In this document: positions 7,926-57,132 of the stretch, piece by piece
Layout of the letters: each line of letters starts with the position of its first letter
Numbering within the stretch: position 1 is the stretch's first letter
Source: an uncultured Acidobacteriaceae bacterium
GTDB lineage: Bacteria; Acidobacteriota; Terriglobia; Terriglobales; Acidobacteriaceae
DNA length: 64,000 nt
Direction: 5' to 3'
Assembly: GCA_963848325.1 (NCBI GenBank)
Contig: CAWKDJ010000010.1
Span: forward strand, 24,689-88,688
Notes under the pieces: model-generated
What the model was told of the DNA's origin: nothing
Seen by the model: the letters and a program-made list of their open reading frames with translations, nothing else
Databases searched by the model: none
Translations under genes and position numbers: made by a program

Positions 7926-8251
7926 GATCGTACCACAGGTTTTGCCCGAGCCAAGGCATTTTTCGCAAGTGGCCGCCCTCGAATGCCCTTCTATGGGATT
8001 CTGATGATTGCGCCCCAGAGAACAGTTGTCAGATCCTTGTCAAAATTGTGTTGGCCGCGCATTTGGTTGGAAGCGAGCCGTCCATGGTTACATCCGAAGC
8101 CGCCTTCCCGCGCTCTGCGGCTGGTTTTTGTATGCTCACAATTCAAGAAGTTCTCCCCTGTGCCCGGGAGAATTCCCCGTCGGGCTGGTGAAACTCCGCA
8201 ACCTGGGTGGGGTCCTTCGACTCCGGGTTACATGGGCCTCTAGAGGCCGCT

Positions 8252-9733: not shown

Positions 9734-9917
9734 GAGATTGAGGCCGTGCTCCCGTAATTCGTGCTCATTCTATCGGGATTTGTGAAAGGCTGCCGGCCCA
9801 AGCCACTGACCAAAAATGATCGCGGTTTACAAACTATCGTAACGCTTAGGCGGTTGACTGATCATCTAACAGGCTGCAAGATGGCTGTTTAGGTAGAAAT
9901 CCGTCTCTGAGGAATGT

Positions 9918-10760: not shown

Positions 10761-10873
10761 GGCCTACTACTTTCCTGAAACGGTTTAACGCTTTCTTCTC
10801 TCTCGGCATCTGGGAATCGTTACAATTAACTGGAGTCGCTCAGTCCGGTTCGAGTCATCTTGAAAGGTCTATC

Positions 10874-16132: not shown

Positions 16133-16272
16133 GAAAACACGGCAAAGAACTGCTCCATCGGCCCCGGCCTCAGGCAACACTGGCCCCTCAGTTCGCACCT
16201 AATCCCCGATTTCGATTCTGTCCCAGAAACAAATCTGAAGAGGCTTCGCCAGAACTAGCTTCCGAAACAAAT

Positions 16273-40018: not shown

Positions 40019-40385
40019 ATGAACATGACTCCAACCTTCTCCGGCCGCATGGTCGCTCACAACATGGTCACCACGCAGTTCGAACTCGACGGATTCCGCG
40101 TCGTCCGCACCCTCGGCGTGGTGCGCGGCATTGTAGTTCGCTCGCGATCGATTTTCGGGACCATCGGCGCTGGATTGCAAACTCTGGTCGGCGGCAACAT
40201 CACTCTGCTTTCGAATTTGTGTGAGAAGACGCGCGCGGAAGCTTTCGACCTGATGCTGCAGCACGCCGCCGAACTCGGAGGCAACGCCGTCGTCGGCGCA
40301 CGCTACGACGCAACTGAAATCATGCAGAGCGTGACCGAAGTCCTGGCCTATGGGACCCGCAGTCTTCGTCGAGCCAATCCGATAA
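40019..40385 (+). CDS. YbjQ/UPF0145-family protein, C-terminus restored by removing one C from CCC at 40356-40358
   Basis: '[27 protein letters not shown]', then the +1 frame gives 'AVFVEPIR*', matching the family C-terminus. Confidence 0.6.
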
Positions 40386-40675
40386 TCCGACCCCTTGTCA
40401 TCCCGAGCCAGCCTCTTTTGCGCAGCGAGGAACCTGAGCGAGCCGCGCGAACGGTCACGTTTTCTGTGACCGCTGAACGCGCGCCTGGCTCGCTACCTTA
40501 TTAGTCGCCATTAGTCGCCGTTGTGAGAAGGAAGTCTCTCTTGACACCTTCTGTGACAACGACAATAATCCTCGCACTCGGCCAACTGCATGTTTGTCCC
40601 CCCTTGCAGCCAGCCGGGCCGGATCCCTGTCTCTCGCGTGTTGAGGCCGCGAATATTTCCGCACGGAGGTATTGA

Positions 40676-42091
40676 ATGACGAAGCTAAATGGACTGAGAA
40701 TTATTCCCGCCGTACTCTATCTCTGCCTCGCGACTACGATCACCACGAGCGCCCAAGGCTTCAAAACCCTGGTGAAATTTGACGGGACCGACGGGGGATG
40801 TCCGAATGGGGGCTTAGTGCAGGGCCGCGACGGCAGCCTCTACGGCGCAACTTATTGTAACGGAGCTGACGGCGAGGGCACGGTGTTTAGAATGACCCCT
40901 CGCGGCGTGATAACCACCCTTTATAGCTTCTGTTCCCAGTCCGGGTGCCCTGACGGTTATGGTGCCGCGTGCGGGACTGGCCCTCGGCACCGACGGAATC
41001 TTTTATGGAACGACGACCCAAACCGCGAATGTTGGCACAATCTTCAAGATCAACGTGAGGGGAGAGCTTACGACTATTTATCGATTTTGCTCCGTGAAGA
41101 ATTGCCCCGATGGCTACACTCCCTATGCGGGACTCGTCCAAGGTACAGATGGGAATCTTTACGGGGCAACAGAGTTTGGGGGAGTGCCCGAGGGAGCTTG
41201 CAATTTTGACGCCGGCTGCGGAACGATCTTCAAAATTAGTCCGGCGGGCAAACTGACCACGCTGCACAACTTCGAGGGGGGCGACGGTGCCAACCCTACT
41301 AGCACTCTGATCCTAGCTACTGACGGCCGATTCTACGGCACCGCGGGATCCTACGGAAATCCCCCATATGTGGGGACGGCATTCGCAATTACATCTCAGG
41401 GTGAATTTGCCACACTGCACAACTTTACTTCAGCGGAGGGCTATCCGAATGGGGTGATTCAAGGCAACGACGGCAGCTTCTATGGGAACCACATTCGAGG
41501 GCGGAATTGGCGGGGGTTCGGTGTTCCGGATGACGTTTGAAGGAACAGTGACGACCATCTACAGCTTTTGCGCGCAGGATGATTGTCTCGATGGCAGCCT
41601 TCCCAGCGACCAGCTAGTGCAGGCCACCGATGGGAATTTCTACGGCTCTACGCGCTTTGGGGGCAATTACGACCGTGGAACCATTTTCCAGCTCACGCCC
41701 GCCGGGATTCTTACCACCCTTCACAGCTTTTGTAACCCCCAATCTGGGTGCGGTGATGGTGCTTTACCCGAGGCCGGGTTGTCTCAGTCAACAAATCGGA
41801 CCGTTATACGGGACAACCAGCTACTTCGGTAGTTCGCTTGGAACGATTTTCGGGGTAAATATGGGTCTCGGCCGGTTCGTCTCCTTCGTTATGCCGGTCG
41901 GAGCTGTCGGGCGGTCAAGGTTTAACCGGCACGACCGCGGTGGCGATCAACGGCGTTCCCGCGAACTTCAAAGTCGTTTCCGATACATATCTGACCGCAA
42001 CCGTTCCCCCCGGCGCTACCAGCGGCTACGTCACCGTCACCACGCCCATCGGCGTGCTAACCAGCAACGTGCCGTTCCGGGTGATCAAGTA
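40676..42091 (+). pseudogene. decayed paralog of the secreted beta-propeller-repeat (GloVer-like) + IPT/TIG protein family
   Basis: Intact GGAGG Shine-Dalgarno, ATG and signal peptide. The repeats 'DGxLYGTT..GG..GT[IV]F[KR][IL]T..G.LTTL[YH]SF' are spread over four or five frames (shifts near 40975, 41488, 41795 and 41905). The 41905 lesion includes a ~17-bp deletion relative to the paralogs. Confidence 0.7.
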
Positions 42092-42128
42092 AATTTGCAG
42101 AAATTTTGAAAGATGAAAGAGGCATGCC

Positions 42129-43547
42129 GTGACAAAACTTAGCTTCTGCAAAACGACACTAGCAATCATCATTCTGGCCGCCTTAAGCTCACTTGGCTTG
42201 CAGGCGCAGACCTTCACAACCCTGGCAGAATTCAACGGCAACAACGGCTTCGCTCCAGTGGGGAAGCTCGTTCAGGGCACAGACGGCAACCTCTACGGCT
42301 TTGCCGGTGCGAACGGAGCAGGTAACTCCGCCAACGGCACAATTTTCAAGGTCACACCCAGCGGCGTCTTGACCACTATTTACTCGTTCGGCGAACCTGT
42401 TGAAGGGGCGCTGACCTTGGCCAATGATGGAAATTTCTATGGGCCCCAATCCGGCAGTTTCGTGAATGGGGATTATGGAAGCGTCTTCAAACTGTCTCCT
42501 CAGGGCGATCTTACGACCCTGTACACGTTCTGCACGGTTCCGGGATGCCCGGACGGAGAGTATCCCGCCGGATTGACTCTGGCCAGCGACGGCAATTTCT
42601 ATGGGACAACCATTGGCCCCCCAGCCACCATTTTCAAAATCACGCCTGGGGGTCAGCTGACGACCCTCTACGTGTTCGAGAATACCGATGGGGACAACGC
42701 GCCATCGAGCGGCGTAATCGAGGCGAACGACGGGAACTTCTATGGCACCAACCTTTACGGAGGCCTTTCGTGCGGTTCCTTCGGCTGTGGCTATATTTTT
42801 GAGATCACGCCTGGGGGAGTCTTTAGCACCGTCTATGAATTTAGTGCCGCCCCCTACGCAGGCTTTCAGCCGCTTGCCGCCCTGGTGCAGGCGTCGGACA
42901 GCAGTTTCTACGGCTCGACGACATCCGGTGGATACCGCTGCACTTTCGATCAGCTCTGCGGCACACTGTTCCAAATGACCCGCGACGGAAAAGTATCAAC
43001 GGCCTTTTTCTTTGATCGGCTGACCACTGGGTATGATCCCAGAACCACGATGATCCAGGCCACAGACGGAAACCTTTACGGGACTACGTTGATAGGCGGT
43101 GCGAACGGTGGTTGGGGCACAATTTTCAATCTGACGCTTGGCCGGAGCTTCACGCCCTTACACACCTTCGACCTGACTGATGGCTCAGCGCCGAATGGCC
43201 TTATGCAAGCCACCAGCGGCATGTTTTATGGGACGACTGCTGAAGGAGGTATTTCGTCCTGCACCCGCAACGGTTGCGGCACCATCTTCAGCCTGAACAT
43301 GGGCTTGGAACCCTTCGTGTCATTCGTGGTTCGCGCCGGTAAGGTCGGTCAAACCGGCGGCATTCTCGGCCAGGGTTTCACTGGCACGACCAGCGTCGAG
43401 ATCAACGGCGTTCCCGCGAACTTCAAAGTTGTTTCAGACACGTATCTGACCGCCACCGTTCCGCCCGGCGCGACCACCGGCTACGTCACCGTCACCACGC
43501 CCAAGGGTGTGCTGACCAGCAATGTGCCGTTTCGCGTAATCAGGTAG
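42129..43547 (+). CDS. secreted beta-propeller tandem-repeat protein (GloVer/'choice-of-anchor'-like) with C-terminal IPT/TIG-like domain
   Basis: GTG start with an AAGAGG Shine-Dalgarno. Signal peptide. About 8 repeats of ~45 aa. C-terminal 'VGQTGGILGQGFTGTTSVEINGVPANFKVVSDTYLTATVPPGATTGYVTVTTP'. Confidence 0.8.
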   Translation: MTKLSFCKTTLAIIILAALSSLGLQAQTFTTLAEFNGNNGFAPVGKLVQGTDGNLYGFAGANGAGNSANGTIFKVTPSGVLTTIYSFGEPVEGALTLANDGNFYGPQSGSFVNGDYGSVFKLSPQGDLTTLYTFCTVPGCPDGEYPAGLTLASDGNFYGTTIGPPATIFKITPGGQLTTLYVFENTDGDNAPSSGVIEANDGNFYGTNLYGGLSCGSFGCGYIFEITPGGVFSTVYEFSAAPYAGFQPLAALVQASDSSFYGSTTSGGYRCTFDQLCGTLFQMTRDGKVSTAFFFDRLTTGYDPRTTMIQATDGNLYGTTLIGGANGGWGTIFNLTLGRSFTPLHTFDLTDGSAPNGLMQATSGMFYGTTAEGGISSCTRNGCGTIFSLNMGLEPFVSFVVRAGKVGQTGGILGQGFTGTTSVEINGVPANFKVVSDTYLTATVPPGATTGYVTVTTPKGVLTSNVPFRVIR

Positions 43548-43572
43548 AATGCGTGCTCCAGGAGGAGACCGC

Positions 43573-44976
43573 ATGTCCAAACTCAGCTTCAGAAGCCAGG
43601 TTTCACTGCTTGTATTGTTTGCGGCCAGCGTCGTGGCCGCGCCCGCGCAAACTTTCACCCGCTTGCACGTGTTCCTCGGCCCCGAGGGCGCCAATCCCTA
43701 CGTCGGGCTCACTCAGGGACGCGACGGAGATTTCTACGGCACCACGATCGACGGCGGGGCTTACGGTTCGGGCAACGTTTTCAGAATGGGTCCAGGCGGT
43801 GGGGTAACTTCGCTTTACGACTTCTGCGCGCAAGCCCTCTGCCCCGATGGGCAGTATCCCGATAGCGTGCTGGCGCTGGGCAACGACGGCAACTTCTATG
43901 GCACCACGCAAAACGGTGGCACCAACGGCGGCTATGGCACGGTGTTCAAAATTACGCGGGACGGCGTTCTGACCGTTCTGCATAGCTTCGACGCTGCCGA
44001 CGGCGCATCGCCTTACGGTTCGCTGGTGCTGGCGTCTGACGGCGCGTTCTACGGGACGACGAACGTAGGCGGAACTTACGGCGGCGGCAACGTTTTCAAA
44101 ATCACGCCCAGCGGAAATCTCACTACGCTGTACACATTCTGCTCGCAAGGCGGTTGCAGCGACGGGCAATACTCGGTCGGTTCGCTCATTCAGGCGAGCG
44201 ATGGCAATATTTACGGCACCACCCATGCCGGCGGCAACACTAGTTGCACCGACGGCTGCGGGACGATTTTCCGCATCACTCTGGGCGGCAACTTCGCCAC
44301 TTTGTATCGCTTTGATACCACCGACGGCGAATATCCTTACGGCGGAGTGGTGGAAGGCAGCGACGGCGCGCTTTACGGAACCACGGGCGGCGGGGGGACG
44401 GGCGGTTTCGGCACGGTTTTCCGCTTTGACGGCGGTAGCAAGCTGACGACCCTGCACAGTTTTCAGGGGAGCGATGGGGCCACGCCTTACGCGCTCATGT
44501 CCGCCAATGACGGAAATCTGTATGGCACGACTTCAACCGGCGGCAGCCGTTCGCGCGGCACCATTTTTGAAATTACGACCGCGGATGCTTTCACCACGTT
44601 GCATAACTTTACCGGACCCGACGGCGCGCTCATCTACGCCGGCCTGCTGCAAGCGACCAGCGGCGCGTTTTACGGCACGGCGTACTTTGGCGGACACGCC
44701 GACGATGGCAACGTCTTCAGCCTCAACAACGGATTGGGCCCGTTTGTGACGTTTGTCGTTCCGGCGGGCAAAGTCGGCCAAACCGGCGGCATTCTCGGCC
44801 AGGGATTGACCGGGACGTCGAGCGTCTCGATCAATGGGCTGCAAGCGGCGTTCCACGTCGTGTCAGACACTTATCTGACGGTCACGGTTCCGGCCGGAGC
44901 GAACACCGGCTTTGTGACTGTGATTACGCCCAATGCGGTGCTGACGAGTAATGTGCAGTTCAGGGTGATTCAGTAA
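43573..44976 (+). CDS. secreted beta-propeller tandem-repeat protein, paralog 3, with C-terminal IPT/TIG-like domain
   Basis: AGGAGG Shine-Dalgarno. Signal peptide 'MSKLSFRSQVSLLVLFAASVVAAPAQ'. Same repeat architecture. Confidence 0.8.
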   Translation: MSKLSFRSQVSLLVLFAASVVAAPAQTFTRLHVFLGPEGANPYVGLTQGRDGDFYGTTIDGGAYGSGNVFRMGPGGGVTSLYDFCAQALCPDGQYPDSVLALGNDGNFYGTTQNGGTNGGYGTVFKITRDGVLTVLHSFDAADGASPYGSLVLASDGAFYGTTNVGGTYGGGNVFKITPSGNLTTLYTFCSQGGCSDGQYSVGSLIQASDGNIYGTTHAGGNTSCTDGCGTIFRITLGGNFATLYRFDTTDGEYPYGGVVEGSDGALYGTTGGGGTGGFGTVFRFDGGSKLTTLHSFQGSDGATPYALMSANDGNLYGTTSTGGSRSRGTIFEITTADAFTTLHNFTGPDGALIYAGLLQATSGAFYGTAYFGGHADDGNVFSLNNGLGPFVTFVVPAGKVGQTGGILGQGLTGTSSVSINGLQAAFHVVSDTYLTVTVPAGANTGFVTVITPNAVLTSNVQFRVIQ

Positions 44977-45045: not shown

Positions 45046-45687
45046 TCACTCCGACTCCCGCCCGCTCGCCCGACTCACTCCGTGGCTCACGGCATAAAGG
45101 ACGAGTTCCACCCGCGATGAAACCCCAACTTTATCGAAAATTCGAAACAGATATTTCTTGATGGTGTTTTCGCTGAGGCCAAGTTCGAGGGCAATGTCGC
45201 GATTGCTCATCCCTTCGGCAACCAGCGCGACCACTTCTTCCTCGCGGGCGGTGAGCAGTTTCATTCCCTCACTGTTCACCACGCGCAGGCCGGGCGTCAG
45301 CGTGAATGCTTCGAGCAGGTAGGCAAGCTGTTGGTTGCTCACCCAGATCTCTCCTTGATGAACCCGGTGAACGCACTTGCAGAGCAGGCGGAAGGAGGAA
45401 TCGGCAAGGCGGAACACTCCTCGGGCGCCGGAGCGGAAGGCATTGACCACGGGATCCGGGTCCGATTCCTGAAGCAGCAGCACCTTGGCAACCTGCGGAT
45501 GCGCAAGATGGAAGTTGCGCAGGACGTTGTCATCGTTGGTTTTTATGAGTGCAACGTCGATTGCCCCTTGGGCGATGGCGTCCGCCATGGCGTCGATATC
45601 AAGCGCGCAGGAGGTCACATGAAATTCCGGTCGGCGGCGCAGCGCTCCGACCAGCAGTTTGCAGTGCATGAAGTCTGAATCAGCCAC
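45046..45687 (-). CDS. LuxR/NarL-family response regulator (REC + HTH_LuxR)
   Basis: C-terminal 'LTAREEEVVALVAEGMSNRDIALELGLSENTIKKY'. REC-like 'ILVADSD...DVALIK'. No in-frame ATG near the REC start, so I took GTG 45687. Confidence 0.7.
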   Translation of the reverse strand: MADSDFMHCKLLVGALRRRPEFHVTSCALDIDAMADAIAQGAIDVALIKTNDDNVLRNFHLAHPQVAKVLLLQESDPDPVVNAFRSGARGVFRLADSSFRLLCKCVHRVHQGEIWVSNQQLAYLLEAFTLTPGLRVVNSEGMKLLTAREEEVVALVAEGMSNRDIALELGLSENTIKKYLFRIFDKVGVSSRVELVLYAVSHGVSRASGRESE

Positions 45688-46052
45688 CAGAATGCCGATT
45701 GGTTGCGGACTTACCGCCGGACGCGTTGCCCATAGATTCCCAGTGTGTAATCGCCAAGAATAACCCTCCCAGCTGTCTTTTTCTGTGACCGTTCGACATC
45801 GCCGAAAACCATATTCATGTGGAAAAGTTTTGGCTGCGCCCGCGTCCCGTTCCTGCACTCAATGGCAAGCGCTGCGTTTCGGGGTGTGAGGAGATGTTTT
45901 CCTCCTGAGGGCAGAAAATGCGGCAAGTCTACTTTGCTGAGCCCACGAAAGTAGTGCCCATCGCCATCAAGTGCTATCCACGCCGGTGGATCACCCTTTC
46001 CAAGTCTTGTGAGTGGCTGGGCTTCTGACTATTCTGCGCAGGTACTTGGAAA

Positions 46053-46808
46053 TTGAACCGCAGATCAATGACGCGCAAGCAAGCCATTTTCGTAGTGATT
46101 GTTCTCTGCTGCATAGGGCAGCGGAAGCTGGTGGTGGCCGCGTGCCAGGAGCAACAGCCTGAGACAACTGTTGCGCCAGCACAGACAGCAGACACCACAA
46201 AATCGGAAGCGGCGGACGGCAAACAGAGTCCAGCCCTGACGGGAGTGCGCCGTCCGCTCTACCGGTTGCGAAAAAGCGATGTGATGGACATTGATTTTGC
46301 TTTCTCTCCGCAGTTGGACCAGACGGTCACGGTGCAGCCGGATGGCTTTATACCGCTCAAGGGAGTGGACCCGGTTTACGCGGAAGGATCGACGGTGCCG
46401 GAGTTGCAGCGAGCCATTCGGCAGGCCTATGCCGGAGTTCTGCACGATCCGGTGGCCACGGTGCTGCTGAAAGATTTCGACAAACCTTATTTTATTGCGG
46501 CCGGCGAGCTTGGACACCCCGGCAAATACGAACTGCGCTCCGACACGACGGTAACGGAAGCAGTAGCGATTGCCGGGGGGTTCACGCCGCGTTCGAAGCA
46601 TTCCCAGGTTGTGCTGTTTCGTCGGATTTCTGACGACACCGTCGAATCTCATCTGCTCAACGTGAAAAACATGGTGAAGGCCGGCACCCTGGGCGAAGAC
46701 ATGCACTTGCGAACCGGCGATCTGTTGTTTGTTCCGCAAAACATGATGTCAAAGATCAGGCAGTTTCTGCCCGCATCCAGCCTTGGTCTCTATGCCAATC
46801 AATTTTAG
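46053..46808 (+). CDS. polysaccharide export protein (Wza-like, Poly_export + SLBB), lipoprotein
   Basis: Lipobox 'VVAAC'. Poly_export core 'YRLRKSDVMDIDF...TVQPDGFIPLKGV'. Confidence 0.8.
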   Translation: MNRRSMTRKQAIFVVIVLCCIGQRKLVVAACQEQQPETTVAPAQTADTTKSEAADGKQSPALTGVRRPLYRLRKSDVMDIDFAFSPQLDQTVTVQPDGFIPLKGVDPVYAEGSTVPELQRAIRQAYAGVLHDPVATVLLKDFDKPYFIAAGELGHPGKYELRSDTTVTEAVAIAGGFTPRSKHSQVVLFRRISDDTVESHLLNVKNMVKAGTLGEDMHLRTGDLLFVPQNMMSKIRQFLPASSLGLYANQF

Positions 46809-46871
46809 GGGGAATTAGCAGCTGCAACCGTTGATGGAAGCGTATGCATCGTCCGGCGAATTAGGATTGTT

Positions 46872-48395
46872 ATGGCAGAGAATCTCACCCTCGTCCCGAA
46901 GCCACCGCAGGAGCAGTCCCCGACTGTGCGAGATCTGTTGGCGGTTCTCTTCCGGCAGCCGCGCCTGGTGCTGATCTCCTTCGTCCTGACCTTCCTTGGC
47001 ATTTTTGTCTATGGACTGGTTTTCCCCCCTTATGAATCGGAGATGAAGGTTCTGCTGCGCCGCGGACGCGTCGATCCCGTGGTTACGCCGATTGGCAGCC
47101 AACCCGAATTCGAGCGCGAGGAAGTAACCGAAGAAGAAGTGAACTCGGAAGCCGAGTTGTTGCAGGACGATGAGATTCTCCGCACGGTGGTCCAGAACGC
47201 CGGCCTGATCTCAGATGGACAGTCATGGTTCTGGAACATGGTTGGGGACACTCCTGAGCGGCAACTGGCACGAGCGGTACGACGAACCCAAAAGCGGCTA
47301 ACGGTGGAAGCCGTGCGCAAAGCTGCTTTGATCACGGTAACTTATGGCTCTTCCGACGCCGAACGCGGACGCAAGGTCTTGCACGCGCTGGCTGACGCCT
47401 ACCTCGAGCGGCACCATCAGGTGCATCGCCCGTCGGGGGAATTCAGCTTCTTCGACCGGCAAGTGGAGCAGTCGCGCCACTCCCTGGAAGATGCCGAGCT
47501 TCGTCTGATGGCGTTCTCTCGCGATCAAGGTGTCATCTCCGCGGCCCAGGAGCGCGACATGGCGCTGCAAAAGCTCAACGAGGCCGACGCGGACGACCGG
47601 CAGACGCAAGTTGCGATCGCCGAGAACTTAGAGCGCATGCGCGCTTTGCAGGAGAAGCTCAATTCCCTGCCGGAACGGACCCTGACCCAGATTCGCAATT
47701 CCGACAATCCGCAACTACTGGAAAAAATGAAGAGCCGTTTGCTTGACCTCGAGCTTAAGCGGACAGACCTGCTCACGCAGTACGAGCCCACTTATCGATT
47801 AGTACAGGAAGTGGACCAGCAGATCGAGCAGACAAAGGCGGCGATCGCCGGCGAAGAACAGGCTCCTGTCCGCGACCAGGCAAGCGATCTGGAACCAAAC
47901 CACGAATGGGCTAAGTCTGAATTGGTGAAAGCCGAGGTCCAAGCCGTCGCCATGGCCGCGCACGCGCGAGCGGAGTCTTCCCTCTTAATTCATTACCGCG
48001 AAACTGCACATGAACTGAGTGACCGCGCTACCCAACAAGAAGTTCTTCTCCAACAGCTGAAAGAGACGGAAGACAAGTACTTGCTGTACGTCAATAAGCG
48101 CGAAGAGGCGCGGGTTGGCGACGCATTAGACCAGGGCGGAATTCTGAACGTCGCGATTGCGGAACAACCTGTTGTTCCCGCGCTGGCCAAGATTTCTCCC
48201 ATCGGCTTTGGATTGATCGGGCTCGGCTGCGCTGGCGTTTTCAGCATCGGGCTTGCGTTTGTCACCGACTACCTGAATCCAGCATTCCGCACACCGGACG
48301 AAGTCATCGCGTACTTGCATGCTCCGGTGCTGGCTTCGCTTCCGCGCGGAAGCGGCACTCACCTGGACGATTTCCAGCCGGGAGAGACCGAATGA
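46872..48395 (+). CDS. polysaccharide co-polymerase (Wzz/GumC-like chain-length determinant) without a kinase domain
   Basis: N-terminal TM, a long coiled-coil periplasmic region, and a C-terminal TM 'IGFGLIGLGCAGVFSIGLAFV'. Confidence 0.8.
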   Translation: MAENLTLVPKPPQEQSPTVRDLLAVLFRQPRLVLISFVLTFLGIFVYGLVFPPYESEMKVLLRRGRVDPVVTPIGSQPEFEREEVTEEEVNSEAELLQDDEILRTVVQNAGLISDGQSWFWNMVGDTPERQLARAVRRTQKRLTVEAVRKAALITVTYGSSDAERGRKVLHALADAYLERHHQVHRPSGEFSFFDRQVEQSRHSLEDAELRLMAFSRDQGVISAAQERDMALQKLNEADADDRQTQVAIAENLERMRALQEKLNSLPERTLTQIRNSDNPQLLEKMKSRLLDLELKRTDLLTQYEPTYRLVQEVDQQIEQTKAAIAGEEQAPVRDQASDLEPNHEWAKSELVKAEVQAVAMAAHARAESSLLIHYRETAHELSDRATQQEVLLQQLKETEDKYLLYVNKREEARVGDALDQGGILNVAIAEQPVVPALAKISPIGFGLIGLGCAGVFSIGLAFVTDYLNPAFRTPDEVIAYLHAPVLASLPRGSGTHLDDFQPGETE

Positions 48396-49120
48396 GCACC
48401 TTCATCCGTCTCATGCCCCAGGCTTTCGAGGGCGAAACCGCCGAGGCAACGGCCAAACCGCAACCGCAAGAAGTCGCAGCGTCCAGGCCGGTTGTACGGG
48501 AGATGGAGTCGTTCGCCGATGAGCAGATCGCCGGGCTGGTGCGGCAAGTTTATCTCACAGGTGCGAAGCCGGCGCGACAAGTTGTGTTCAGCGCTGTCGA
48601 CCGGGAAACGAAAATCTCTGGTCTTTGCCAAAGAATCGCGGGAGCGTTGAGCGAGCAGGCATCCGGCACAACCTGTTGGTTGAATGCGAACTTTCAGAAT
48701 CGAGACTCGCAGCTCGCCGAAGCCCGCCGGTTTCAGGCCGGAGACGATCTGAAACGGTTCGGCGGCCTGCGCGATGCCTCACAGCAACTTTCCAACCAGC
48801 TTTGGTGCATGCCTGCTGAAGTTTTCCTGGGGGAAGGTAATGGATTATCCGCAACCTGGTTGCGCGCGCGCCTGGCTGAATTGCGCCTGGAATTTGACCA
48901 CGTGGTGATTCAAGGCTCTACCTGCGGAGCAACCAATCAAGACTCCCTACTCGCCGGCGTGTGTGACGGGATGGTTTTGGTTCTGGAGGCGAATGTCACG
49001 CGCCGGGTCTCAGCGCGAAAAGTCAAAGAAACGTTGGATGCGGCCCATGTGCGGCTTTTGGGCACCGTCCTCAGCGAGCGCAGATTCCCGATTCCGCATG
49101 CGATTTACAAGCGGGTATAA
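48392..49120 (+). CDS. degenerate BY-kinase-like P-loop protein (Walker A replaced by 'SAVDRETKIS', no C-terminal Tyr cluster)
   Basis: ATGA overlap with the PCP gene. Sits where the CpsD/Wzc kinase would be and shows that fold's layout, but the catalytic motifs are eroded. Confidence 0.55.
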   Translation: MSTFIRLMPQAFEGETAEATAKPQPQEVAASRPVVREMESFADEQIAGLVRQVYLTGAKPARQVVFSAVDRETKISGLCQRIAGALSEQASGTTCWLNANFQNRDSQLAEARRFQAGDDLKRFGGLRDASQQLSNQLWCMPAEVFLGEGNGLSATWLRARLAELRLEFDHVVIQGSTCGATNQDSLLAGVCDGMVLVLEANVTRRVSARKVKETLDAAHVRLLGTVLSERRFPIPHAIYKRV

Positions 49121-49137
49121 GGACAAGGTGAATTCAG

Positions 49138-50749
49138 GTGGCAACCGCAATCTTCGACAATTACCCGCCGGATGGGCGAAATAGGTTTCCTTCGCGATTA
49201 ATTCCCGGCGCACACGCGTTCAACGGAGCACTGCCTCGCCGAAAAGCGGCCTCCGCAGCTATTGAAGCGAAAATATGGGAGTGGCCGGGAGACCTCTTCC
49301 GCCCACCCCGGCTTTCATTGTGGCGAAGGATCTTCGCCGCGGTGTTGCCGCAGCCCGCGACTCGAAATCTGCGGCTGGGGTTGGCGATGGCTGTAGTTAG
49401 CGACTTCTTCATCATTCTTGTCAGCTTTCTGACGTGCGGCATCTGTTTCGCATTTTTCCGTTCTTCCCCGCTCTCGTATTCCGCAATTTTTCCACGCGCC
49501 GGTCTCAGCACGCTACTTTTATATGGCACAGTCTTCACTTTATTGGGGTATTCCGAACGTCTTTATCAGCCGGAAACGATTCGGTCGCCGTCTCGAGAAT
49601 GCTCGCTTCTTGCCAAGGTAGCTGCCTGGTCGACGGCGATGGTGGTCGCGATCTTTGCAGTTTCCATGACCCCTGAGGTGCCCGGTTCTTAACCTGGCCG
49701 CCAGTGCTCCCCTCAGCTGCCTGCTCATGCTTGGAGCCAGGTATTGGCGTCGCAGATCGTGGAGAACAAGTAGAGCCGGAAGTCACGTCAGGAACGTGCT
49801 GATTATCGGGGCTGGAAAAGTGGGCCGCGACCTGGCTCAGCGCTTGCAGCAGGACCATCCGCGACAACGAATCGTTCGCGGATTTCTCGATGACGAGTTT
49901 CCGACCGGTGGCGATATTCACGGCTGCATCGCCGATCTGGCCCGCGTCTCGCGCCATCACTTCGTGGATGAAATCATCCTTGCCATCCTCCCGCATTCTC
50001 AGGCGGCAAAGCGAGTAATTTCCGAGGCGCGGCGCAACCGGATTGACGTAAAAATTGTGCCTGACCTACTGGGGTTTGATCCGGCCGGGGTCTCATTCGA
50101 AAACGTCAACGGCATTCCCCTGCTCACTCTTTGTGAAGAACCGGTGCCAACGGTGGGCCTGCTATTCAAGCGGACAGTAGACGTGATCCTGTCCACATCC
50201 GCATTGGTACTCTTTGCTCCGCTCTTCGGAGTGATTGCCATTGCGATCAAACTGGACTCGCGAGGAGCGGTGCTCTATCGCGCAACGAGATTGGGCCGTA
50301 AGGGTCAACGTTTCGAATGCTGCAAGTTCCGCACAATGGTCGCCAATGCCGACGCGATCAAAGAAACACTTCGCGCTCTGAACGAACGGCAAGGCGCGTT
50401 CTTCAAAATCTCCAACGATCCGCGAGTCACCCCAGTCGGCCGGATCCTCCGCCGCTACAGTCTCGACGAATTGCCCCAGCTTTGGAACGTTCTTCGCGGC
50501 GAGATGAGTTTGGTCGGTCCGCGGCCCCATCCGCTGGACGACTTCGAGCGATATCGAGTGGAAGATTTGCAGCGCCTGGAGATCACGCCCGGGTTAACGG
50601 GATTATGGCAGGTCATGGCACGGCGCGATCCGTCATTCGAACGCGGAATGATGCTCGACCGCGATTACATCGGCCGCTGGAGTCTCTGGATGGACTTCAA
50701 GATCATGTGCCGGACAGTGGCCGTCGTGTTGCGCGGAGAGGGAACATAG
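49138..50749 (+). CDS. initiating polyprenyl-phosphate sugar phosphotransferase (WcaJ/EpsL 'bacterial sugar transferase' family), frameshift near 49690
   Basis: TM N-terminus in frame 1. The C-terminal catalytic domain 'VLYRATRLGRKGQRFECCKFRTM...LPQLWNVLRGEMSLVGPRP' is in frame 2. Confidence 0.8.
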
Positions 50750-50751
50750 CG

Positions 50752-52076
50752 ATGCCGGCGATCGAACAAACCGCGCCACGAAGTCTTGCCTGCGATTTGG
50801 TCGCTGGGACGATCTTAAGCGGATTTCGCCCCCTTCAAGCAATGATCGCCGCCCCGCCAATTTTGTTCATGGCGGTCATGGGATTGATGCTTTTTCATCC
50901 TCCTGACTACCGTTTCCCCCCCTATGACCGGATTGCGTTTCTGTTGCTGACGTTCATCGTCGGCTTGCGCACCTGCATTCTGAGAAAACGGGTGGTGGTT
51001 GGCGGGCCCGTGACCTGGCCCATGCTTGGGCTGGTCGTGCTGGCACTCGGCGGAGTTTTGGCCCAGCCCTACGATCCCGAAACCTGGAGCATGTTTGCCG
51101 CCAAATGGTTCTTGCCATTCGCCCTGTTTGCATTGGCCGGCCATATATTCGACAGTTCGTCGTCTCTACGGCAATTCGAAGTTTTCTCCCTGATCGTGCT
51201 CGGGTATCTGGGTCTAATCGCGATTTTTTTCCTGATCGGCACCAAACAGTTGATCTTTCCGCGTTACATTTTGGATGAAGGTCTGGGCATCCATTCGACC
51301 GCGCGCGCGGACCTTTTCTACAGGCGGTTGCCAACGGAGTAGCACTCAACATTCTGGGATTGGTCGCCCTGGATTCATTCCGTCGAAAACGCCTGCGCAG
51401 TGTACTGGCTCTCCTTTTATTGGCCGGATTGCCGCTCGCGATTGTCGCCACCCGGACGCGAGCAGTCTGGCTATCGTTTGCAGCGTCGATTCTCGCCCTG
51501 TTGATGTTCAGTCCAAGCCGCCGCTTGCGCCGCGCTTGCCTGGCCACTGCTCTCGCGGGAATTTTGGCCGTTCTTCTTTTGGCTGCGTTTGGAGACGGGC
51601 ATCGGTCGTTGAGCGAGCGGCTCGAGGATAGCAGTCCGGTCAGGTTCCGCATGGCGGTCTACGAAGCCGGATGGGAGATGTTCCAAAAGAAACCGCTAAC
51701 TGGATGGGACGCCAAGGCAATGCAGGCCGAGCTTGCCAGCCGCATCAGCGAATTTCACCAGGAGCAGTATTACTTCCACAACACTTTCCTTGAGGTTTTG
51801 GTGCAGTACGGGGTAATCGGATTGGCTCTCTATGTCTGGTTGGTCGTGGACCTCTTTCGCATTGGACGACTGCTACCTGGCGCCGCCGAACCGGCCGGGA
51901 ATTTTCTCGACCTGCGGTTCCGTACAGTTTGGCCAGTAATCCTGATGGTCTACGTCGTCAACAGCATGTTTGTGGTGATGAATTATCAGTTCGTCAACGG
52001 TTTTCTGTTTACCATGGCGGGAATGCTGGCGGCGCAAAATCGCAAGCATTGTGGAGAGCAGAATGCCGTCCGCTGA
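50752..52076 (+). CDS. O-antigen ligase / Wzy-like polymerase family membrane protein, frameshift near 51330
   Basis: Multi-TM with the Wzy_C-like 'HNTFLEVLVQYGVIGL'. ATG 50752 lies 2 nt after the sugar transferase stop. Confidence 0.7.
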
Positions 52077-53439
52077 AACTACCTTGCCCCAACCATGCTC
52101 TGCCAAAGCAGAGGCCGTCCTGCGTCCAGAAAGTAGCGCTGCGATCTCCAGCCAAACCATGCGTGGAGGCGTTTACCTGGCGGCGCGATATGGCCTGGGC
52201 GTGCTGGTCAGCATCGCAAACATGCTGGTTATGACCTGGTGGATCGGCCCACACGCTTACGGATTATTCGTTTCAGCCATTGGCATTGCGGCGTTTCTCG
52301 CGACCCTCGCCCGGCTGGGAATCGACACGTATCTGGTACGAACTGAGAGAGCCCAGACGCCCGGATATACGGGACAGCCGCAACCCTCATTTTGGCCGCG
52401 TCCCTGGTGTTGGCCGTCGCGGGCGCAGCGGCGACACCATTGTTGGTTCGCTGGTTCGGTAATCGGGAATTTGTTTTTCCGTATCTCATCTTGCTCCTGA
52501 CGATCCCCGTGACCGGGCTCACCGGCGTGCCCATGGCACGACTCGAGCGCGCGTTGGATTTTCAGCGGATTGCCGCCATCGAACTCTGCAGCCAGTTTGC
52601 CGGACTGGTCATGGCAGCTTTGCTGGCATGGCGGCACGCCCAAGTGTGGGCGCCGGTCATGGGCCAGGTTGCCTGGCAGGTATGCACATTGCTTGCGGTG
52701 CTCGCCTCTGCGCCCCAACTGTGGCGGCTTCGCTTCAATCGGGAAGAAGCACGCAAGATGCTTGCCTACGGCATGAGCCTGACCACTTCGCTGCGCACCT
52801 GGCAGTTGCGGACCTTGGTGAATCCCCTGCTAGTTGGCCGATTTGCGGGGGCTGAAGCCGTGGCGTTCGTGGCCCTTGCCATCCGCATTGCGGAAGCGCT
52901 CGGCACCTTCCGGCTGGCCGCGGGCAGAATGGCGATCGCGGCGCTCGCTCGATTGCAGGCCGTCGCACCGAGTTTCGCAAGGCGCTCGAACAGGCACTCT
53001 ACTTGCAGGTCATTACGCTAGGCCGCTCCTATGCGCCTTTGCTCTGTGCGGCCCATTCATCGTCCGGCACTTCATCGGCGTGCGCTGGATGCCGAGCCTG
53101 GCCATCTATCCATTCGTCGCCGCCGGCGTTCTAGTCAACTCCATTTACAACCTGCAGGCTTCAGCTCTGTTTGTCATCGGAAAATCGCGCGTTGTCACGA
53201 AAGCTTACACCGCCCATGTTCTGATACTCGCTCTGACTACCATTTTTTTTGTGCCGAAGATCGGCATCGCCGGTTACGGCTGGGCTGAACTGGCCGCTTG
53301 TGCCTCTTATCTCGTCATCCATGCAGGTCTCGCGCGCGACTTGACGATCTCCTATCGCAGGCTCATTCCCTGGATGGGCGCCTTCGCCAGTTGCCTGCTG
53401 GTGGCTTCCAGGTTCCGTTTAACTGGTCTGGTGGGGTGA
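52063..53439 (+). CDS. Wzx-like polysaccharide flippase (Polysacc_synt/MOP family), at least 2-3 frameshifts (about 52370, 52975, 53045)
   Basis: GGAGAG Shine-Dalgarno. 12-TM-like hydrophobic profile spread over three frames with no stops between. Confidence 0.65.
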
Positions 53440-53452
53440 GGCGCACTTCGCT

Positions 53453-54727
53453 ATGCCAGCTATCGCATATCTCGCGAATTTGTTTCCCGCCGCCAGCGAA
53501 GGCTATGTAATTGATGAAATTCGCGAACTGCGCCAGCGCGGAATCACGGTTGTCCCTTGCAGCGTGAGGCGAGCGGCACCGCAACTCGATCCTGCCCTCA
53601 AACCGTGGATCAACGGCACCATTTATCTTTACCCGCTTCGACTGAACATACTGTTGGCGGCGACGTGGTTGTGCATCGCCAAGTTGGGAGTGTTGAAGCC
53701 ATTTCTTGCCCGCCTGCTGCTCCAAGGAAGTGAATGGCCGCTCCAGCGGGCGCGGGCGCTTGCTCACACTCTGCTCGGTGTTTACTACGCGGTCTTGTTG
53801 CGGCGGTTTGATCTGAGCCATATTCACGTGCATCACGGCTATTTCGGATCGTGGGTCGCGATGGTCGCCGCGAAGCTCCTTGGCGTTCCGTTCAGCGTTA
53901 CGTTGCATGGATCGGACGTGCTGTTGCATCCCGCATATCTCGGCATCAAGCTGGAACATTGCCAATTTTGTCGCACGATTTCCGATTTCAACCGTCAGCA
54001 CATCCTCAATTGTTATCCAAACGTTGATCCTCACAAAATTGTGGTCCAGAGACTCGGAGTGGATTGCACCGAGAACTGCCCTCCCGCATTGCAGGAAAAA
54101 CACGCTCCGTCCTCATTCGTCATCTTTTCCGCGGGACGGCTGCATCGGGTCAAGGACCACGAGTTTCTTGTCCGTGCGTGTCGCGAATTGAAAAGACGTG
54201 GCGTGAAATTCAGCTGTCGAATCGCCGGCGAAGGCCCGGAACAGCAATCGCTGGAACGTTTGATTCGCAACCTCGGGCTGCAAAGCGAAGTCCAGTTGCT
54301 TGGCGAAGTCCTTCACGCGCAAATGCCCGCTTACTACGAGATGGCGGATCTCGTCGTCCTTACCAGCCGGAGCGAAGGCATTCCCCTGGTGCTGATGGAA
54401 GCGATGGCACAGGGCAAGGTGGTGCTCGCACCGGCCATCACCGGCATTCCGGAGCTGATCAGCCACGCAGAAACAGGCTTCCTCTACCGCCCGGAGTCGC
54501 TCGATGATTTCGTGGCAAAGGTAGAAATGATCCGTGACACGCGCGCAACCCTCGGTCAACTACGGCATGCAGCGCGCAAGCAGGTAGTCGAACATTTCAA
54601 TCGACAAACCAACCTGGCAGCATTCTGCGACCACCTGATCACGCGACTGCAACCCGGCCCGCCGCACGAATTGAAAGAAACGCCCAGCCAGCGAGAAATT
54701 TCCTATGAAAATCCTGTTTTGCAATAA
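53453..54727 (+). CDS. GT4-family glycosyltransferase
   Basis: 'EGIPLVLMEAMAQGKVVLAPAITGIPELI' GT-B C-terminal motif. Intact. Confidence 0.85.
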   Translation: MPAIAYLANLFPAASEGYVIDEIRELRQRGITVVPCSVRRAAPQLDPALKPWINGTIYLYPLRLNILLAATWLCIAKLGVLKPFLARLLLQGSEWPLQRARALAHTLLGVYYAVLLRRFDLSHIHVHHGYFGSWVAMVAAKLLGVPFSVTLHGSDVLLHPAYLGIKLEHCQFCRTISDFNRQHILNCYPNVDPHKIVVQRLGVDCTENCPPALQEKHAPSSFVIFSAGRLHRVKDHEFLVRACRELKRRGVKFSCRIAGEGPEQQSLERLIRNLGLQSEVQLLGEVLHAQMPAYYEMADLVVLTSRSEGIPLVLMEAMAQGKVVLAPAITGIPELISHAETGFLYRPESLDDFVAKVEMIRDTRATLGQLRHAARKQVVEHFNRQTNLAAFCDHLITRLQPGPPHELKETPSQREISYENPVLQ

Positions 54728-55935
54728 GTACAACTTTCCCTTCAGCGGCACCGAAGTTTATCTCTTCGAACTGATGGGCCTTTTGCGTTCACGTGGACAC
54801 GAAGTGGCTCTGTTCTCCATGGCCGACCCTCGCGGCGAAGCCACGCCCTTCGACGCGCACTTTGTTCCTCACGTTGACTTCAAAGATTCGACTGCGAGCT
54901 GGACCACGCGGGTCAAACTCGCAGCCCATGCCGTCTATTCAACGGATGCAAGAGGACGACTGCGGGCCCTGCTCACGACATTCCAACCGGACATTGCGCA
55001 CGTTCGCAACATTTATCACCACTTGTCGCCGTCTATTTTGTGGGAGTTGAAGGCACAGGGTATACCTGTGCTGTACCATCTCAACGATTTCAAGCTGCTC
55101 TGCCCTGCCTATAACCTGGTGACCAACGGGCGAGCCTGCGAAAAACCGTGTACGGGAAAGTTTTGGAAGGTCCGCACACAAGGCTGCTACGAAGGGGCGG
55201 CAAGCACGGCGGCGGTTCTGGCGGCCGAGGCTTTCTTCCACCATTGGATGGGAACTTACCGGAAATGCCTGGATCACATTCTCACGCCCAGCCAGTTCGC
55301 GAAACATTTCTTAGCAGAACACGGTTTCGACGGTCACAAGATTTCCGTTCTGCCTCATTTTCAGAACTTGCCTGCCTCGTCGCCGCCCCCTGTTGCCGAG
55401 GACGCGCCGATTCTCTACTTCGGCCGGCTGTCGCACGAAAAAGGTGTAGCCGACCTCATCCATGCGATGCGCGCATTGCCGCAAGTCCGGCTGCAAATTG
55501 CCGGGCGTGGACCGCAGCAGGGTGAACTCGAGCGTCTGGTCAAAATTCTGAATTTGCAGAACGTCGAGTTCCTCGGCCATTTATCAGGTGAGGCTTTGGA
55601 GCAGGCAATCGCGACTTCGCGCTTCACCGTTTTGCCTTCGCATGCCTACGAAACCTTGGGCAAGAGCATCCTCGAGTCCTACGCCTGGGAACGCCCGGTT
55701 GTAGCGTCCGATTTAGGCTCGCGCCGCGAGTTGGTGCCGTCCAAACGAAACCGGACTTCTGTATGAACCCGGAAATGTCGAGCAATTGGCGAAAGCGATT
55801 TCTATCCTGGCCGAGCAGCCCCAACTCGCGGCGGAGATGGGCAAGGCCGGGCGGAAGTTCGTCGAAGCAAATCACAACCCGGAAAAGCATTATGCGCAAC
55901 TGCTGCGGCTTTACCAGCAGATGACCGGGCACGCC
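54705..55935 (+). CDS. GT4-family glycosyltransferase, frameshift at the AAA run at 55749-55751. The 3' end is ambiguous
   Basis: 'YETLGKSILESYAWERPVVASDLGSRRELVPS', then the next frame reads 'ETGLLYEPGNVEQLAKAISILAEQPQLAAEMGKAGRKFVEANH'. There is no stop before the next GT in that frame. Confidence 0.65.
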
Positions 55936-57132
55936 TGCAGTCGTTCACGCCGTCAGCCAGTGCGGGTTGCCTTTATCGGCGGGCGCGGCGTCATCTCGAA
56001 GTACAGCGGAATTGAAGCGTATTACGAAGAAGCCGGCCGCGAACTCTCAGCCCTGAACTATCAGGTCACCATTTACTGCCGAAACTACTTCACTCCGCCG
56101 ATCACCAAGCACAAGGGGATGCGGCTGGTGCGGCTGCCGACTCTCCGCTCGAAACATTTTGAAACCGTGATTCACACTCTGCTGAGCACGCTGCACGTAA
56201 TGTTCAGCTCGAACGACATCGTGCATTACCACGCGCTCGGTCCGGCGCTGTTTTCTTTCCTACCCCGTCTCGCCGGGAAGAAGACGATCGTTACCGTGCA
56301 AGGCCTCGATTGGCAGCGCAAAAAATGGGGACGCCTCGCTGCCTTCACGTTGCGCCTGGGCGAAATGGCCGCGGCGCGGCTGCCGAACTCGACCATGGTC
56401 GTCTCGAAAACTTTGCAGAAGTATTTCCGCCAACGCTATGGCATCGACGCGGCTTACATTCCAAACGGCGCCGTGCTTCGTGAGCGGAGCAGCCCTGCGT
56501 CTCTTCCTAAGTGGGGACTCGACGCCGGCAAGTACGCCCTCTTCCTTGGTCGCTTCTCGCCCGAGAAGAATTGCCACTTGCTGATCGAGGCATTTGAAAA
56601 CCTCCAAACTCCGGCCAAGCTGCTGCTGGCTGGCGGATCAAGCCACACGGACTCTTACGCTGCCAACCTGCGGCGACACGAAAGCGGCCAAATTCACTTT
56701 CTCGACTGGCTCTCTGGCGATGCCTTGAACGAAGCTCTGACCAACGCCGCACTATTTGTCTTGCCCTCCGATCTCGAAGGGCTATCGCTGGCGCTGCTGG
56801 ACGCAATGGGTGCCGGCGTCTGCGTCCTGACGAGTGACATTCCGGAAAACCGCGAAGTCGTGGATGGCGCGGGCTTCACGTTTCGCGCCGGCGACGTGGA
56901 TGACCTGTCCCGGGTGATGAATCGCCTGCTGGCCGATCCTGAAATCCGTGCCGCTGCCGGGCGTAGCGCGCGCGATCTGATTCGAGAACATTATCTCTGG
57001 CCGAACATTGCTGGCCAGATCGCTCAGGTATATGAAGAGGTGCTAGGCCGTCCGGCAATGGGTGTTTCTAAAATGAAATCGAAAGCCACTTCGGCCGATG
57101 CAATCGCTGGGAAATCCAAGCGCGTGGCCTAG
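55921..57132 (+). CDS. GT4-family glycosyltransferase (the start is ATG 55921 or GTG 55960)
   Basis: 'RVAFIGGRGVISKYSGIEAYYEE' N-terminal GT-B motif. C-terminal 'EGLSLALLDAMGAGVCVLTSDIPENREVV'. Confidence 0.75.
   Translation: MTGHACSRSRRQPVRVAFIGGRGVISKYSGIEAYYEEAGRELSALNYQVTIYCRNYFTPPITKHKGMRLVRLPTLRSKHFETVIHTLLSTLHVMFSSNDIVHYHALGPALFSFLPRLAGKKTIVTVQGLDWQRKKWGRLAAFTLRLGEMAAARLPNSTMVVSKTLQKYFRQRYGIDAAYIPNGAVLRERSSPASLPKWGLDAGKYALFLGRFSPEKNCHLLIEAFENLQTPAKLLLAGGSSHTDSYAANLRRHESGQIHFLDWLSGDALNEALTNAALFVLPSDLEGLSLALLDAMGAGVCVLTSDIPENREVVDGAGFTFRAGDVDDLSRVMNRLLADPEIRAAAGRSARDLIREHYLWPNIAGQIAQVYEEVLGRPAMGVSKMKSKATSADAIAGKSKRVA

Follow-up and report, generated by a model that had tools for sequence, protein, structure and literature searches.

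A tandem array of three GloVer-repeat proteins with C-terminal TIG domains, and the broken reading frame of its first copy

Introduction

Tandem-repeat proteins of the GloVer type are described in NCBIfam by the model TIGR03803 (Gloeo_Verruco), under the name "choice-of-anchor tandem repeat GloVer-containing protein". This is a very large group, in which at least 7999 relatives are found at E<1e-10, many of them 460-510 aa long, provided with the Pfam TIG domain (PF01833) and already named GloVer by NCBI or JGI. A GloVer + TIG architecture of 470-500 aa is very common in Terriglobia, and tandem pairs of such genes are found at other sites as well. No function of its members is described in the searched literature, and neither TIGR03803 nor Gloeo_Verruco is mentioned in any paper of it.

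The solved structures that offer a comparison are those of bacterial seven-bladed propellers, namely virginiamycin B lyase (2z2n), Leptospira Lp49 (3bws), E. coli YncE (3vgz), the Photorhabdus PLL/PHL lectins and galactose oxidase/GlxA. With all of them identity is only 10-19%, and there is no demonstrable sharing of domain order, ligand or catalytic residues; in fact, no solved structure related to the proteins described below is detectable in the PDB by sequence or profile. As for gene order, the closest case is another Terriglobales genome (L085, JGI 3300021181), in which two adjacent GloVer+TIG genes (8218-9642 and 9668-11125) lie on the same strand, have near-identical TIG tails and are flanked by polysaccharide and sugar-nucleotide genes.

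Here, we describe an array of three such genes in a 64,000-nt stretch of Acidobacteriaceae DNA (hereafter, the window), the genome being a Sulfotelmatobacter-like one of the Terriglobales (Acidobacteriota). With the L085 pair the array has in common the 25-nt spacer, which here separates its second and third genes. It differs from that pair, which consists of two copies, both intact, in a neighbourhood without ybjQ, tricorn or LuxR genes. The array is an unremarkable example of a large family that already has a name but no functional characterisation and, as it stands, the locus adds little to it. We consider it probable that the locus is a duplicated array of exported, non-catalytic binding propellers, of which the first copy is mostly broken by assembly and carries one gap that is probably real.

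Layout of the Array and Its Expression Signals

Three paralogs lie side by side on the forward strand at positions 40676-44976 of the window, all of them encoding GloVer repeats followed by a C-terminal TIG domain. Together with a site upstream they are:

40541..40569, + strand: promoter-like site, TTGACA-17-AATAAT, matching the consensus at 11 of 12 positions, about 107 nt upstream of copy 1
40676..42092, + strand: copy 1, encoding a GloVer propeller and a TIG domain, its frame split into five pieces (tblastn frames 3, 1, 2, 3, 1)
42129..43547, + strand: copy 2, intact, 472 aa, GTG start, with a signal peptide, seven GloVer repeats and a TIG tail
43573..44976, + strand: copy 3, intact, 467 aa, ATG start, modelled as a seven-bladed propeller plus an Ig-like domain

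The open reading frame of copy 3 opens at 43549, but its true start is the ATG at 43573; exactly this 467-aa product is on record, and an identical entry in the protein collection exists also for copy 2, whereas exact look-ups of both copies in the contig index gave no match. Each start is preceded, at 6-7 nt, by a Shine-Dalgarno sequence (GGAGG, AAGAGG and AGGAGG for copies 1-3, respectively) and all three N-termini, judged by eye, have the look of Sec signal peptides ending in AQ, so that the original prediction of three paralogs, each with a Shine-Dalgarno and a signal peptide, is confirmed. The three genes are probably co-transcribed, and the promoter-like site at 40541..40569 may drive the whole array; promoter-like sites in the region are no more numerous than in shuffled sequence.

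GloVer Repeats, TIG Domain and Predicted Fold

The assignment to GloVer, already proposed from the sequence, was borne out by profile search: against a curated TIGR03803 cut-off of 44 bits, copy 2 scores 245 bits, copy 3 353 bits and copy 1, once its frame is repaired, 306 bits. Each protein contains seven matched stretches, that is, seven tandem units of the type LVQGxDGNLYGTT..GG..GTVFKITP.G.LTTLYSF, and thousands of Terriglobia proteins agree with these in both length and TIG tail. In repaired copy 1 the DGxxYG motifs fall at residues 52, 106, 158, 216, 265, 318 and 373, recurring about every 53 aa; this spacing and the seven modelled blades correct the earlier count of about eight repeats of roughly 45 aa.

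An AlphaFold model of copy 3 (pLDDT 95, pTM 0.91) shows seven blades and an Ig-like domain, and as modelled the protein fits a seven-bladed beta-propeller, with seven four-stranded blades around a central axis. Residues 390-466 are predicted as 8-9 strands forming an Ig-like beta-sandwich (pLDDT 93-98). The C-terminal ~75 residues align to positions 2-83 of the 84 in the PF01833 model, nearly its full length, and precomputed PF01833 matches are common among homologues of the array proteins; the scores of the array copies, however, are borderline, lying only at the gathering threshold of 20.9 bits (21.0 for copy 3, 20.4 for copy 2, 20.1 and 22.5 for the L002 and L001 orthologues, respectively). 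Repaired copy 1, in which the first core TIG strand is missing, reaches 16.5 bits.

The proteins terminate at the last TIG strand (...NVPFRVIR/K/Q), and no PEP-CTERM, LPXTG, T9SS or other sorting-signal model matched the array copies at E<=0.01. The view that the C-terminus is an Ig-like TIG domain rather than a PEP-CTERM anchor therefore stands, and in this the copies differ from the "choice-of-anchor" group, which takes its name from a C-terminal sorting signal. Such a sorting or anchoring signal is not required by the TIGR03803 domain model.

The Disrupted Frame of Copy 1

Four lesions disrupt the frame of copy 1, each with a +1 shift:

40959..40962, + strand: lesion 1, one extra base (tatGgtg) near 40961, between CPDGY and VPRAGL
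41483..41486, + strand: lesion 2, one extra g (tatGGGa) near 41484, inside FYG|TT
41796..41798, + strand: lesion 3, one extra base (aatCgga) near 41797, inside STN|GPLYGTT
41905..41912, + strand: lesion 4, junction at which 17 nt present in copies 2 and 3 and in two orthologues are missing

These include the deletion of about 17 bp at about 41905 that had been noticed among several lesions. The gap, whose junction reads GCTGTCGGGCGGTCAAGG, takes out QTGGIL, a conserved TIG beta-strand (E404-408) with the same spacer length in 67 of 68 homologues, and it can be read equally well as an 18-nt deletion plus one extra G. When four bases (40961, 41484, 41797 and 41909) are removed, copy 1 yields a 470-aa ORF without a stop. 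No convincing motif is shared by the insertion sites: TATGG is present at three and the others differ. Phase variation and programmed frameshifting were rejected, the lesions lying at four separate sites with no long homopolymer or slippery run.

Broken frames are not confined to the array. In the same window, single extra bases also interrupt cdaA, the tricorn protease gene (twice), the ybjQ-family gene, the LuxR gene and the priming glycosyltransferase gene, and the SBP and flippase genes are split by lesions located without base-level typing. The frameshift sites outside copy 1 include those at about 11450, 29195, 37745, 38283, 40355, 45728, 49680 and 52377. Most of these other shifts are +1 and none of the base-typed ones exceeds 1 nt, several more being placed only from split domain matches. 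The tricorn protease, whose best match among GTDB species representatives is 88%, shows how such breaks are distributed in the clade: they occur in 7 of 34 long-read-style MAGs with 'contig_' names, with up to 6 frame changes in this gene alone, vs none of 16 short-read assemblies. From its length and from this naming of contigs in relatives, we infer that the source contig too may be of long-read type. What look like multi-hit pseudogenes in this contig should not be taken at face value, given that cdaA, tricorn, ybjQ and the priming glycosyltransferase gene are hit by frameshifts of the same single-base kind.

Nevertheless, lesions are unevenly spread, copy 1 having four in 1.4 kb vs roughly 9-11 in the other 62.6 kb (about 16-20 times the window average) and copies 2 and 3, though equally repetitive, having none. 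Such a distribution is not what a uniform error model would give, and some of the single-base lesions in copy 1 could therefore be real.

The sequence that remains shows no sign of relaxed constraint, because the repaired frame has no in-frame stops, its TIGR03803 score of 306 bits is higher than that of intact copy 2, dN/dS between copies 1 and 2 in the shared tail is 0.14 and the dN of copies 1 and 2 to copy 3 is equal (0.188 vs 0.189). The dN/dS of copies 2 and 3, a comparison suggested with the original prediction, was computed, but carries no information, synonymous sites being saturated (dS 1.65); in its place the pair formed by copy 3 and its L001 orthologue was used, giving 0.11. When repaired copy 1 was used as a protein query, either in full length or as residues 1-303, no orthologue exceeded ~58% identity, in a setting where the repeats inflate bit scores and short high-identity fragments may be out-ranked. 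For copy 2, protein searches of JGI data returned no close relative, and no second assembly of the same strain was found on record.

Two opposite explanations have to be weighed against these data. According to one, several independent lesions have built up in copy 1, making it a true pseudogene in a process of ongoing birth-and-death at the locus. The local density of frame-disrupting lesions, the loss of a conserved strand through the gap and the variation of copy number among relatives all argue for it; we nonetheless regard it as doubtful, given that conserved genes of the window are broken in the same manner and with the same +1 sign, and that the repaired copy is stop-free and as constrained as its intact neighbour by the measures given above.

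According to the other, all four lesions, the gap included, arose as artefacts of assembly or consensus calling in an error-prone long-read metagenome bin, and copy 1 is intact and expressed. This appears unlikely: a strand loss of 18 nt, in a spacer of nearly invariant length, is not a typical consensus error, no other base-typed lesion is longer than 1 nt and the equally repetitive copies 2 and 3 are lesion-free, even if frameshifts do spread over the whole window, related 'contig_' MAGs are affected in a similar way, the alternative reading of the gap again involves one extra G, and the gap sits in a paralogous stretch (85% identity) to which reads of copy 2 could mis-map.

The claim that copy 1 is "genuinely decaying" hence survives only in part: base-calling error does not readily account for the 17-nt gap, but the three single-base lesions resemble the background seen in conserved genes and there is no erosion. 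Real gene decay of copy 1 is not established. Most likely, the three single-base insertions are assembly errors, and the gap is probably a real and recent lesion; copy 1 would then be either a very young pseudogene or, which is less likely, intact in the organism.

Copy-Number Turnover and Homogenised Tails

The size of the array changes at this locus, and the turnover is real: the nearest relative (L002) has one GloVer copy, after ybjQ, three are present here, and a ~90% identical strain (L001, with ERR12035941 as its source) has a different extra GloVer gene of 394 aa. Gene-family turnover, which had been anticipated, is in this respect borne out. Copies 1 and 2 are unequally similar along their length, with 49-59% nucleotide identity in the propeller parts vs 85% in the TIG tail:

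41910..42089, + strand: TIG tail of copy 1, 151 of 177 nt identical to the tail of copy 2 at 43365-43544

From this pattern, the tail of copy 1 appears to be a tract of gene conversion or partial duplication, with the gap as its starting point.

Proposed Origin and Role of the Array

The reading preferred here, that of a duplicated array of exported binding propellers, can be outlined as follows. The array would have arisen through duplication, and gene conversion would have homogenised the TIG tails of its first two copies. The Sec signal peptides should direct export at least to the periplasm, where each product is expected to form a seven-bladed beta-propeller closed by an N-terminal strand and followed by one Ig-like TIG domain, with C-x4-C loops of the propeller probably forming disulfides and apparently no sorting tail, whether PEP-CTERM or another. 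These proteins would most likely act like propeller lectins, by binding an extracellular ligand (for example a glycan) without catalysis, and the paralogs may have diverged in ligand specificity. That they are instead enzymes, such as Vgb/SGL-type propeller lyases or lactonases acting on an extracellular substrate, is very improbable, since the weak Pfam Vgb_lyase match of repaired copy 1 (17.5 bits) is far under the cut-off of 50, and the family-conserved columns (Gly, Phe, Tyr, Pro, Thr etc.) are structural to the blades with no obvious catalytic set, despite the lactonases and DFPase among the Foldseek matches to the copy 3 model.

A more far-reaching version, which we put forward as a speculative and rather unlikely one, is that a real 17-nt deletion at the edge of the conversion tract has created a young pseudogene in a fast-turnover array of propeller lectins, kept by Terriglobia beside EPS loci, with a diversified propeller and a homogenised TIG tail. 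If it were true, GloVer+TIG proteins would constitute a large, unstudied matrix- or glycan-binding family of soil Acidobacteriota. For tests of binding function, a starting point is provided by the confident predicted model of a seven-bladed propeller with an Ig-like domain, together with the observation that the propeller diverges and the tail is homogenised.

Neighbouring Genes

The array is flanked by the following genes:

40019..40504, + strand: ybjQ-family gene, upstream of the array, with an extra base near 40355
45046..45858, - strand: gene of a LuxR/GerE-type regulator, transcribed towards copy 3 and away from the EPS export gene
46053..57132, + strand: Wzx/Wzy-type exopolysaccharide (EPS) cluster, several genes of which are frame-broken

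In the ybjQ-family gene the extra base alters the final 12 codons, with the ORF lengthened to 161 aa. The EPS cluster comprises an export protein, a chain-length determinant, a kinase-like protein, the priming transferase, a ligase/polymerase-like protein, a flippase and GT4 transferases. A PEP-CTERM/exosortase link of these genes was considered and rejected, XrtA-system equivalogs scoring far below their cut-offs and no exosortase being seen.

A LuxR-type regulator does lie beside the array, as had been noted: its product has a C-terminal GerE helix-turn-helix (PF00196, 59.8 bits vs a cut-off of 23.5) and its residues ~67-260 align with NCBIfam regulators of the NarL/MadR/CsgD type, all far below cut-offs, with no match to the receiver domain PF00072 (Response_reg) at E<=0.01. 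Relative to L001, the gene carries its single-base frameshift at 45728. Among relatives, it stays with the EPS cluster and not with the array.

Organization of the Array and Family Assignment

An ORF scan placed three neighboring paralogs on the plus strand between 40676 and 44976:

40676-42092, plus strand, copy 1, in five frame pieces (tblastn frames 3, 1, 2, 3, 1)
42129-43547, plus strand, copy 2, intact ORF of 472 aa
43549 (ORF opening; real start ATG 43573), plus strand, copy 3, intact, 467 aa

The ATG of copy 3 is preceded by AGGAGG 7 nt upstream, and the 467-aa product starting there is already on record in the protein database. Since the intergenic gaps measure only 36 and 25 nt, co-transcription of the array is likely; a strong sigma-70-like sequence, by consensus match only (11/12), is found at 40541-40569, upstream of copy 1. 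The three N-termini, judged by eye, combine a basic residue with a hydrophobic segment and an A-Q site, resembling Sec signal peptides.

All copies match TIGR03803, the NCBIfam “choice-of-anchor tandem repeat GloVer-containing protein” family, far above the cut-off of 44 bits (copy 2, 245; copy 3, 353; copy 1 with its frame repaired, 306), with seven repeats each. The tandem paralogs and the GloVer repeat named in the original prediction are thus confirmed, the family being already known, whereas the repeats, described as about 8 of 45 aa, are instead seven with a period of ~53 aa. The TIG-like C-terminus that had been proposed is matched by Pfam TIG, but only at the threshold of 20.9 bits (21.0 for copy 3, 20.4 for copy 2). 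No sorting-signal model matched the copies in a profile search and the proteins terminate at the last TIG strand, in agreement with the claimed lack of a PEP-CTERM anchor.

The GloVer+TIG family is very large and its architecture is common. Two full-length protein searches returned at least ~8000 relatives at E values under 1e-10 or 1e-20; the listed hits are mostly 460-510 aa long, many carry PF01833 and are named TIGR03803 or GloVer by JGI or NCBI, and the members listed come from Terriglobia, Terriglobales, Solibacter and Bryobacteraceae. A literature search found no paper mentioning TIGR03803.

Lesions in Copy 1

Comparison of the copy 1 DNA with its paralogs and with the consensus of the repeat revealed four lesions, each of which shifts the frame by +1:

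~40961, plus strand, one extra base between CPDGY and VPRAGL
~41484, plus strand, one extra g between FYG and TT
~41797, plus strand, one extra base between STN and GPLYGTT
~41905-41909, plus strand, 17-nt gap

Removal of four single bases (40961, 41484, 41797 and 41909) restores 1413 nt encoding a 470-aa ORF without internal stops. The fourth lesion, expected as a 17-bp deletion at about 41905 and indeed found there, is compatible with a deletion of 17 nt and equally with one of 18 nt accompanied by a further extra G. It takes out QTGGIL, equivalent to residues 403-408 of copy 3, where the model predicts a strand of the TIG sandwich (E404-408). Of 68 homologues with tails fitting the search pattern, 67 have exactly 9 residues in the spacer that includes this segment, and therefore the gap represents the loss of a core element rather than natural length variation.

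Frame Changes in the Window

The same kind of lesion recurs across the window in genes that are expected to be intact, and the changes are mostly +1:

~11450, cdaA, broken within the GTRHRA motif
~29195, split in an SBP_bac_5 gene
37745 and 38283 (approximate), tricorn protease, two non-homopolymer changes, both +1, against the intact 1156-aa orthologue of L002, the nearest relative
~40355, ybjQ, one extra base altering the last 12 codons
45728, LuxR gene, extra G relative to L001, a strain contig, putting the first 29 codons out of frame
49680, priming glycosyltransferase, extra G relative to L001, splitting it into ORFs 49138-49692 and 49727-50749
~51340, ligase/polymerase-like gene, N-terminal half missing in frame
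~52377 and probably ~53000, splits in a flippase

The SBP_bac_5, ligase/polymerase-like and flippase entries come from split or partial domain matches. This pattern points to indel errors in the assembly and not to biology. Among relatives, tricorn keeps one frame throughout in each of the 16 assemblies whose contigs are named in short-read style and is broken in 7 of 34 MAGs with “contig_” names (L004, L013, L029, L033, L041, L043 and L044; locus coordinates ~6000-11700), as many as six changes occurring in the gene of L044. Contig names and sizes suggest that the latter are long-read assemblies, and tricorn breakage in the public MAGs of this clade appears as a technology-linked artefact. 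One of the two tricorn frameshifts of the window falls at the end of a Lys/Asp/Glu-rich low-complexity linker (38180-38290), which is common to L002.

As the assembly is visibly error-prone, the claim that copy 1 is genuinely decaying is only partly supported: its frame is broken, but its single-base lesions are like those in conserved genes of the window and erosion is not detected. In fact, copy 1 scores above the intact copy 2 against the family model, its dN/dS to copy 2 is 0.14 in the shared tail, and its dN to copy 3 (0.188) matches that of copy 2 (0.189). Several observations favour some real damage nonetheless. Copy 1 bears four lesions per 1.4 kb, a density ~16-20-fold that of the window on average (some 9-11 in the other 62.6 kb), while copies 2 and 3, repetitive to the same degree, have none in 2.8 kb, and no other lesion of the window typed to the base exceeds 1 base. 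Moreover, the gap coincides precisely with the point at which copies 1 and 2 go from 49-59% to 85% identity (151/177 nt), and which marks one end of a tract of conversion or partial duplication. On balance, the 17-nt gap is likely to be a real and recent lesion, and the three single-base insertions are likely to be technical.

Turnover at the Locus

Gene turnover at this locus, proposed as birth-and-death, is supported, regardless of the status of copy 1, by comparison with L002 and L001. In L002, the nearest genome among species representatives (tricorn 88% identical), tricorn and ybjQ are followed by only one GloVer+TIG gene, which encodes 470 aa at 68% identity to copy 3, and then by unrelated genes, with neither the LuxR gene nor the EPS cluster downstream. 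In a genome scan of the other 79 tricorn loci, no GloVer match was found downstream of tricorn, and the only one within 10 kb was partial and lay at the extreme upstream end of L067. L001 (89-92% nt identity) carries a copy 3 orthologue, separated from the LuxR gene and the following EPS genes by a 2.07-kb insert (L001:1573-3642) with a fourth GloVer gene (394 aa, 281 bits), lacking the TIG tail, and a 241-aa gene matching no known family in a profile search. The copy 3 orthologues have a dN/dS of 0.11 at dS 0.40, indicating that copy 3 is under purifying selection.

Among the matches listed by name, the closest relative of copy 1 is P0190 (57%; two unnamed matches reach 58%), a lone gene of the L002 MAG (L082:10001-11467) flanked by sulfate-activation/HIT genes on one side and a NiFe-hydrogenase cluster on the other; paralogs are therefore scattered as well as arrayed. 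Such arrays are not unusual, since in another Terriglobales genome (L085:8218-11125) two GloVer+TIG genes likewise stand in tandem, 25 nt apart and almost identical in their C-terminal tails, among genes for sugar nucleotides and glycosyltransferases. Homogenisation of the TIG tails may occur throughout the family.

Predicted Structure and Proposed Role

The AlphaFold model of copy 3, built from a 110-sequence alignment, is confident (pLDDT 95, pTM 0.91) and predicts a signal-peptide helix, seven four-stranded blades and a beta-sandwich at residues ~390-466; from the strand pattern, residues 27-33 at the N-terminus seem to complete the last blade as its outer strand. The cysteine pairs 85/90, 190/195 and 225/229 (C-x4-C or C-x3-C) would fit disulfide-stapled loops of an exported protein. 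No PDB chain matched by sequence, either with copy 3 or with the 110-sequence profile. Foldseek matches of the model (TM 0.45-0.54) include designed Cake propellers, galactose oxidase/GlxA, likewise a propeller plus an Ig-like domain, and Photorhabdus PLL/PHL lectins. The model establishes the predicted fold, propeller plus beta-sandwich, and bears on fold only, not on function.

The array proteins would most likely work as exported, non-catalytic, lectin-like ligand-binding propellers with an Ig-like tail. We favor ligand binding because Gly, Phe, Tyr, Pro and Thr, as is usual in propeller blades, make up the family-conserved columns, because no enzyme family matched above threshold in the profile search, and because the paralogs diverge in the propeller. 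That they are Vgb-type enzymes is a minority alternative.

Neighboring Genes

Two features follow the array:

45046-45858, minus strand, LuxR-type gene
46053-57132, Wzx/Wzy-type EPS cluster, starting with a Wza-like export gene

The LuxR-type regulator reported beside the array was recovered with a GerE HTH (59.8 bits). Pfam detected no canonical receiver domain in it, and the part upstream of the HTH aligns weakly to NarL/CsgD-type regulators; it may be an atypical, non-phosphorylated receiver. The gene is convergent with copy 3 and divergent from the Wza-like gene. A putative role in regulating the EPS cluster fits this gene better than control of the array, because in L001 it still adjoins the EPS genes though two other genes part it from the array, and because it is absent at the single copy of L002. 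Elsewhere in the window (15925-20257, plus strand), two adjacent CBM48 + alpha-amylase-family genes, a first of 837 aa and a second of 653 aa that also carries DUF3459, look like a glycogen/trehalose pair of the GlgX/TreY/TreZ type.
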